This document shows positions 61,418 to 61,478 of a stretch of 64,000 bases of DNA, in pieces. The translations under genes and the position numbers were made by a program. Position 1 is the stretch's first letter. Each line of letters opens with the position of its first letter. This stretch comes from Octopus vulgaris (lineage: Eukaryota). The stretch covers positions 2,418,001 to 2,482,000 of the forward strand of contig OX597835.1 of assembly GCA_951406725.2 (NCBI GenBank), in the 5' to 3' direction. A model generated the notes under the pieces. That model was not told the DNA's origin and made no database searches. It saw nothing but the letters and a program-made list of their open reading frames with translations.

Positions 61418-61478
61418 AAATCTCTCCAGTCCATCAACCGAAAGGAGCTAATGTAATTTTGAATGAAATGGCTCGTCG
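61418..61478 (+). CDS. Gene G, coding exon 2 (propeptide): KISPVHQPKGANVILNEMAR(R); knottin exon not found within the window
   Basis: ctctttcag|AA...CG|gtaaga; 61 nt, open frame, paralog of E exon 2. Confidence 0.78.

Follow-up and report, generated by a model that had tools for sequence, protein, structure and literature searches.

The DNA analyzed here (the window, 64,000 nucleotides in length) comes from Octopus vulgaris contig OX597835.1, positions 2,418,001 to 2,482,000 (G000:C22:2418001-2482000; genome size 2.8 Gb), and carries part of a family of some 40 small tandem genes with spider-toxin-like cysteine cores. The family precursor is encoded by three exons, which specify in turn a signal peptide, a pro-spacer, and a knottin-type core of eight cysteines followed by a hydrophobic tail; exon 2 is thus a pro-region, as the original prediction had it. 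Nine copies are young (E, G, H, I, J, K, L, N, and O) and have 5' blocks that are 94-99% alike. Our concern is with two of them, E and G, for which exon 2 differs far more than the adjacent introns and which are laid out as follows (window positions):

60688 to 60751, plus strand: first coding exon of G, signal peptide
61418 to 61478, plus strand: exon 2 of G, pro-spacer (phase 1 / phase 2), with 5 private substitutions, that at 61477 giving a junction Arg and an Arg-Arg (RR) site
beyond the window end, starting at G000:C22:2483987 (L024:1987): exon 3 of G
43461 to 44745, plus strand: block of E with 96-97% identity to the young subfamily
43515 to 43578, plus strand: first coding exon of E, signal peptide; joint 43578>44248, GT..AG
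44248 to 44308, plus strand: exon 2 of E, pro-spacer, matched by a spliced contig with 0 differences
47024 to 47252, plus strand: coding part of exon 3 of E (Lys-Arg (KR) site, eight-cysteine core, spacer, hydrophobic tail, and stop), matched by E-type contigs

Local alignment of the two genes, spanning 43461-44579 in E and 60634-61749 in G, gives 12 mismatches and no gaps over the 61 nt of exon 2 (44248-44308 versus 61418-61478). Two of these are silent and 10 change a residue, the junction codon, when read with the first base of exon 3, being Ser in E and Arg in G. The surroundings are nearly identical, with 1 mismatch in the 64 nt of coding exon 1 (43515-43578 versus 60688-60751), 16 in the 666 nt of intron 1, a single one in the 187 nt upstream of exon 2, and 14 in the 270 nt downstream. 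Divergence ends at the borders of exon 2. The alignment therefore reproduces the counts of the original prediction, and its claim that exon 2 stands above the introns holds statistically: 12/61 against 30/936 for both flanking introns gives Fisher P=2.5e-6 (9e-5 once multiplied by 36, the number of copy pairs), comparison with the downstream 270 nt alone gives P=6.5e-4, and a permutation that accepts any 61-column window with at least 12 mismatches gives P=2e-4. Both N-V-S sequons of E are likewise absent in G. Loss of sequons as the driver of the divergence is unsupported, however, given that the second sequon is private to E among the nine close copies (1/9) and that N-G-T is gained in exon 3 of G; the first sequon of E is followed by Pro.

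E and G are two real genes that are spliced as modelled. Contigs bearing on this point come from runs X6, X7, and X9 of one study, which we take to be transcripts on the basis of a splice joint and exon-bounded pieces. In an X6 contig, 43578 is joined to 44248 across GT..AG and exon 2 of E is matched with 0 differences, while an E-type X7 contig is, at 818 nt, as long as exons 1+2+3 together should be. Exon 3 of G is matched by an X6 contig (0 differences) and by an X9 contig (2 differences) that begins at the exon-3 acceptor. An extra intron after the core, for which there is a donor-like GT in the tail, is ruled out because the X6 and X9 contigs read through the tail and stop with no joint. 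It was conceivable that E and G represented haplotypes, or that their exon-2 differences were assembly errors. Indeed, the adjacent I+J and K+L blocks (G000:C22:2520500-2565900, L027-L032) are 98.7-99.3% identical over ~22 kb, reflecting either tandem duplication in the very recent past or a haplotype left uncollapsed, and the exon-2 letters of G are themselves not among the independent-run matches listed (the DNA-like runs X4, X5, and X8 cover the block, with the G private sites again not among the matches listed). The third exons and flanks of E and G are nevertheless unrelated, independent contigs match exon 2 of E and exon 3 of G, and several of the G states are also found in other copies, so that such an artefact is scarcely credible. 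Exon 2 of E and of copy H also contains GTAAGT, a perfect donor-like motif (44283-44288) present in 6/28 gene models, which G>T at 44287 destroys in the other seven young copies; use of this donor would shift the frame, and the full exon is used in the X6 contig.

Searching the genome with the signal exon gives 36 matches, 35 on C22 and 1 on C4, and the 664 kb made up of the window and further fetched sequence contain 39 cysteine exons. The spacing C-C-CC-CxC-CxC characterizes the family, 36 of the 39 cores having eight cysteines and 3 having ten, and all eight are invariant across 33 aligned cores (E, the near-duplicates K and L, and the three ten-cysteine cores being left out). In eight young copies, 7 of the 8 cysteine codons are identical despite 20-40% core divergence. 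The ten-cysteine cores (L057:5858-5974, L058:2028-2144, and L058:8191-8307) contain a CCC run, and two are without a nearby exon 1/2 match. Resemblance to the spider-toxin families Toxin_9 and Toxin_7 in Pfam is weak: matches are seen in 3/5 proteins, the best Toxin_9 score of 20.7 bits is under the curated cut-off of 21.3, and only 4 of 33 members match at E<=0.05, G not being among them. A structure model places a hairpin at residues 25-29/33-37, at low confidence (predicted local distance difference test score 57.6, predicted template modelling score 0.27). A protein search of the genome with exon 3 of E returns little more than itself, with 2 weak matches, because the cores are too diverged.

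It is this core that is under strong positive selection and is the main target in the family. Among distinct young copies, divergence is 18-43% in the core, compared with 2-7% in the neighbouring 300 nt of intron 2 and 0-9% in the tail. Pairwise omega (the ratio dN/dS of non-synonymous to synonymous rates) is 1.5-6.2 for 15 pairs, all exon-3 tests being made on copies other than E. For seven copies, model M0 gives a core omega of 4.8 (p=1.3e-4) and M2a is preferred over M1a (p=3.8e-7), with 75% of sites at an omega of about 10; core omega is 4.05 with eight copies and 2.44 (p=2.7e-4) with 13 members of a second cluster, for which the tail omega is not reliable, its alignment including frameshifted tails. 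The original prediction of a toxin-like, positively selected family is therefore borne out at the exon-3 core, but exon 2 is not the main target. Exons that evolve faster than introns are also found in snake toxin genes.

As for exon 2, E-G is the most diverged of the 36 pairs, and in four of the nine copies (I, J, K, and L) the exon is identical. Among the nine copies, 15 of 61 exon-2 sites segregate, as do 41 of 660 in intron 1 and 31 of 269 in the initial part of intron 2. For six distinct full-length copies (K and L, near-copies of I and J, are left out, as is the intron-2 start of O, where homology ends), mean pairwise divergence is 0.5% in exon 1, 1.7% in intron 1, 7.5% in exon 2, 4.5% in intron 2, 30.5% in the core, and 4.6% in the tail. 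Intron 1 is thus 2.6 times slower than intron 2 and so provides a slow yardstick. In the 61 nt of its exon 2, G carries 5 private changes, compared to 1.2% of 3270 non-coding columns (P=0.001, or 0.006 after multiplication by six), and no significant private excess is seen in exon 2 of the other five distinct copies. Polarizing the E-G differences with four outgroups assigns 9 of the 12 as derived towards G and 3 to E. These are not old retained alleles, and we therefore reject an old exon 2 spared by gene conversion in either gene, as had been suggested. In the second cluster (C22:7.55-7.72 Mb, 14 models, of which 1 is left out of the omega tests and 3 out of the allele-count test), exon 2 averages 14% divergence against 5-8% for the flanking intron; non-synonymous alleles (25/43) exceed those of the intron (58/284; P=8e-7), while synonymous ones (3/14) equal the intron rate (non-synonymous versus synonymous, P=0.018).

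Taken together, we consider it probable (about 0.6) that E and G are tandem knottin-type paralogues selected in their cores, and that the exon-2 gap is mainly a burst of change on the G branch, likely with a shift of processing site, which gene conversion has exaggerated. Several results weigh against this reading. Codon models give an exon-2 omega of 0.96-0.97 (p=0.95 for 0.96; range about 0.3-4) for the E/G cluster, in which synonymous alleles are also raised (3/13 versus 20/366, P=0.04); on the long branch to old paralogue M, exon 2 does not outpace intron 1 (0.214 versus 0.228), and it averages only 1.7 times intron 2 in the six copies (0.075 versus 0.045; P=0.03); and the exon-2 omega of 2.17 in the second cluster has p=0.12. 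That omega of 0.96, the four identical copies, and the slow intron-1 yardstick leave diversifying selection on the propeptide, as first proposed, unsupported for the E-G pair or its cluster. Modest, family-wide selection on the pro-exon is plausible, although it is not shown by dN/dS for E-G.

The same observations would be expected were exon 2 a neutral, unconstrained spacer that only seems fast by comparison with an intron 1 and a signal exon homogenized by conversion or constrained, E-G being the chance extreme of 36 pairs. An omega close to unity, identity of the exon in four copies, the disparity between the two introns, and evolution at the intron rate towards M all fit this explanation, as does the conservation, even across clusters, of the 75 nt upstream of exon 2. 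It has difficulty, however, with 12/61 mismatches, which are unlikely even at a yardstick of 4.5-5.2% (P=1.5e-5 to 6e-5), with the private excess in G, with divergence that halts at the exon borders, and with the second cluster, where the non-synonymous frequency is 2.8 times higher and the synonymous one is that of the intron. We consequently regard a neutral spacer as quite unlikely. A localized mutational process, such as exon-targeted hypermutation, might instead raise the synonymous as well as the non-synonymous rate of exons 2 and 3, and tree lengths for dS are higher in exon 2 than in intron (0.30 versus 0.07) and in the core under M2a than in intron 2 (0.24 versus 0.15). Yet the exon-2 value is based on 3 changes, neither exon 1 nor the tail part of exon 3 is elevated, exon-2 dS equals that of the intron in the second cluster, and transition:transversion counts are similar (4:8 versus 13:19), making this process very improbable.

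The burst on the G branch may have moved the processing site of this precursor. In 8 of the 9 young copies, Ser is encoded across the junction of exons 2 and 3, and the KR site lies within exon 3. G is without the exon-3 KR, and its private change at 61477 yields a junction Arg and hence RR across exons 2 and 3; the core of G also has 18 private changes compared to 1-5 in the other copies. Judging from these sequences, RR may compensate for the lost KR, in which case cleavage there would release a core with a longer N-terminus. A dibasic site is present ahead of the core in 25 of 28 gene models, and that of G depends on the exon-2 change. The other 3 models are without any such site, which counts against the proposal in that a dibasic site is therefore not indispensable. 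The shift in processing site, moreover, directly explains just 1 of the 12 E-G differences.

Recombination among the copies is readily detected, in agreement with the role given to gene conversion in the original prediction. For eight copies, incompatibility is seen in 100 of 300 informative pairs of sites, and incompatible pairs are fewer at short range (18/87 within 150 nt versus 82/213; P=0.003). The young copies are largely in alternating orientation. E is itself a mosaic gene: the block at 43461-44745 is 96-97% identical to the young subfamily, whereas the 3' half is ~28% different from it and as distant as M. Conversion probably maintains the similarity of intron 1 and of the signal exon between copies, thereby exaggerating the contrast with exon 2. 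Homogenized introns around diverged exons are described as a signature of selection under conversion in the available part of PMC3924837, where exon 5 of the red/green opsins offers a parallel with tandem paralogues and homogenized introns that flank diverged exons; unlike in the opsins, the exon-2 differences between E and G are mostly newly derived rather than retained alleles. A 5'-exon swap similar to that in E is reported for cone-snail toxins in the accessible portion of PMC13542836.

The remainder of the window contains a truncated copy and four older paralogues:

49475 to 50338, minus strand: copy F, comprising an upstream region, the signal exon (49877-49940), and some of intron 1
3075 to 3291, plus strand: older paralogue A, eight-cysteine exon with a weakly hydrophobic tail
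8033 to 8162, minus strand: older paralogue B, eight-cysteine exon without a tail; candidate signal exon from 11952
23519 to 23738, plus strand: older paralogue C, eight-cysteine exon with a hydrophobic tail
29067 to 29298, minus strand: older paralogue D, eight-cysteine exon with a hydrophobic tail; candidate signal exon from 32932

Copy F is 97-98% identical to G and E and stops within intron 1, and no exon 2 was found for it. Open reading frame fragments are present at 54671-56103, 1787-2643, and 5278-5783, which we take to be remnants of a retroelement (reverse transcriptase / GIY-YIG) and of mariner-type transposases. No tRNA genes were found. Elsewhere, the transcript type of the copy at L077:8437-8556 is found, with loose ends, in X6, X7, and X9; this copy lies within an array of at least 3 cysteine exons (C22:3.384-3.389 Mb) behind one exon 1/2 pair, and these are possibly alternative last exons.

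A spacer, a small-residue omega site, and a terminal hydrophobic tail together make up the anatomy of a glycosylphosphatidylinositol (GPI) signal, and a GPI-anchored protein has a signal peptide besides and no cytoplasmic part. Using a crude rule of our own rather than a trained predictor, we find, in 30 of the 39 cysteine exons, a spacer together with small-residue omega candidates located 17 to 31 residues before the C-terminus and a terminal hydrophobic stretch that has no more than one basic residue after it. G- and E-type contigs show the tail to be exonic, and it is also present in the very distant paralogues C and D. Most members are therefore predicted to be tethered to the cell surface rather than freely secreted, a prediction against which stand the 9/39 exons that fail the rule. 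Alternatively, the peptides might be soluble venom or defence toxins, the tail being a cleaved post-peptide or a transmembrane remnant and not a GPI signal. The spider-toxin cysteine spacing with its weak Toxin_9/Toxin_7 matches, the conotoxin-like combination of conserved signal and hypervariable core, the copies that have no tail, and the post-peptides carried by I2-conotoxins (PMC3862624, in the part available) all speak for soluble toxins. On the other hand, the hydrophobic stretch continues right up to the C-terminus and no basic cytoplasmic segment follows, small-residue omega candidates are present in those 30 exons, and the young copies are without a dibasic site separating core from tail. 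Soluble venom peptides with a cleaved post-peptide are a serious rival to surface tethering, if on balance a somewhat unlikely one. Members that are tail-less or have a Lys-rich tail (L052:7863, L053:8402, L081:8702, L083:8794, L037:6624, and window 8033-8162; one is on C4) are possibly soluble forms.

The family can be compared with several known systems. The precursors of CCWamide / agatoxin-like peptides (ALP), as presented in the accessible part of PMC8557429, likewise have three coding exons that begin with the signal and end with the mature peptide, as well as a non-conserved pro-peptide and eight cysteines, and their phase-2 intron splits a basic cleavage codon, as it does here in 10 of the 14 second-cluster models and in G. 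In 8/9 young copies, by contrast, the junction codon is Ser and KR is inside exon 3; a spacer of 25-35 residues and a hydrophobic tail (tail in 30/39) replace the amidated aromatic C-terminus; and in place of 1-3 conserved genes there are ~40 copies whose loops are hypervariable. Because the amidated aromatic end is missing, we do not file the family as CCWamide/ALP members. Conotoxin superfamilies of the inhibitor cystine knot type resemble it in placing signal, pro, and mature regions on separate exons, in their conserved signal and hypervariable core, and in later exons that are faster than exon 1 (PMC3862624, same part). Introns 1 and 2 of three-exon conotoxins are, however, poorly conserved according to that source, whereas those of the octopus family are 95-98% alike and recombine; the octopus family also differs in its GPI-like tail. 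The mussel MgCRP-I genes form another molluscan multigene family with phase-1 then phase-2 introns, a last exon that has a dibasic site and cysteine array, and a positively selected mature region; they differ in being soluble, with six cysteines and a conserved pro-region, as opposed to eight cysteines, a more variable pro-exon, and a hydrophobic tail (PMC4558851, in the part available, which reports that toxicity was not found and that function is unknown). Among the titles and abstract openings covered, neither a cephalopod family of this kind nor naturally occurring GPI-anchored knottins were found to be described, although supplements of genome papers may list the family; the words 'cysteine' and 'toxin' were not found in the accessible main text of PMC9068888, and the available parts of PMC11288129 and PMC13311285 contain nothing on the family beyond the CCWamide-agatoxin link.

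Divergence of exons over introns is a known pattern, and the exon-2 case is modest when considered alone. Of more importance is the existence of a large, young, and strongly selected family of knottin-type genes, most members of which are predicted to be membrane-anchored. Its nine near-identical copies provide a clean system for separating gene conversion from selection, exon by exon, and G is a testable case of a cleavage-site switch. Tethered knottins are, to our knowledge, engineered tools and not a natural family. The Ly6/lynx1 prototoxins are GPI-anchored and combine a toxin-like disulfide domain with a signal peptide and a GPI signal; theirs is a three-finger fold, whereas that of the octopus family would be knottin-type, its anchoring and function being predicted here. 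Anchoring, cleavage, fold, and targets would then fit together as follows. The signal peptide would direct the precursor to the endoplasmic reticulum, where the conserved C-terminal hydrophobic tail may be swapped for a GPI anchor, and a convertase would cut at the dibasic site to remove the exon-2 spacer. The hypervariable, disulfide-knotted domain would then be displayed on the cell surface, or shed, perhaps binding ion channels, receptors, microbes, or other partners that change rapidly. We tentatively suggest, at less than even odds, that the octopus has some 40 natural GPI-tethered knottins, derived from a CCWamide/agatoxin-like gene and evolving at conotoxin-like speed, which may serve in Ly6/lynx-like tuning of its own channels and receptors or in surface recognition, and among which processing-site switches like the KR-to-RR shift of G, and loss of the tail, would yield new as well as soluble forms.
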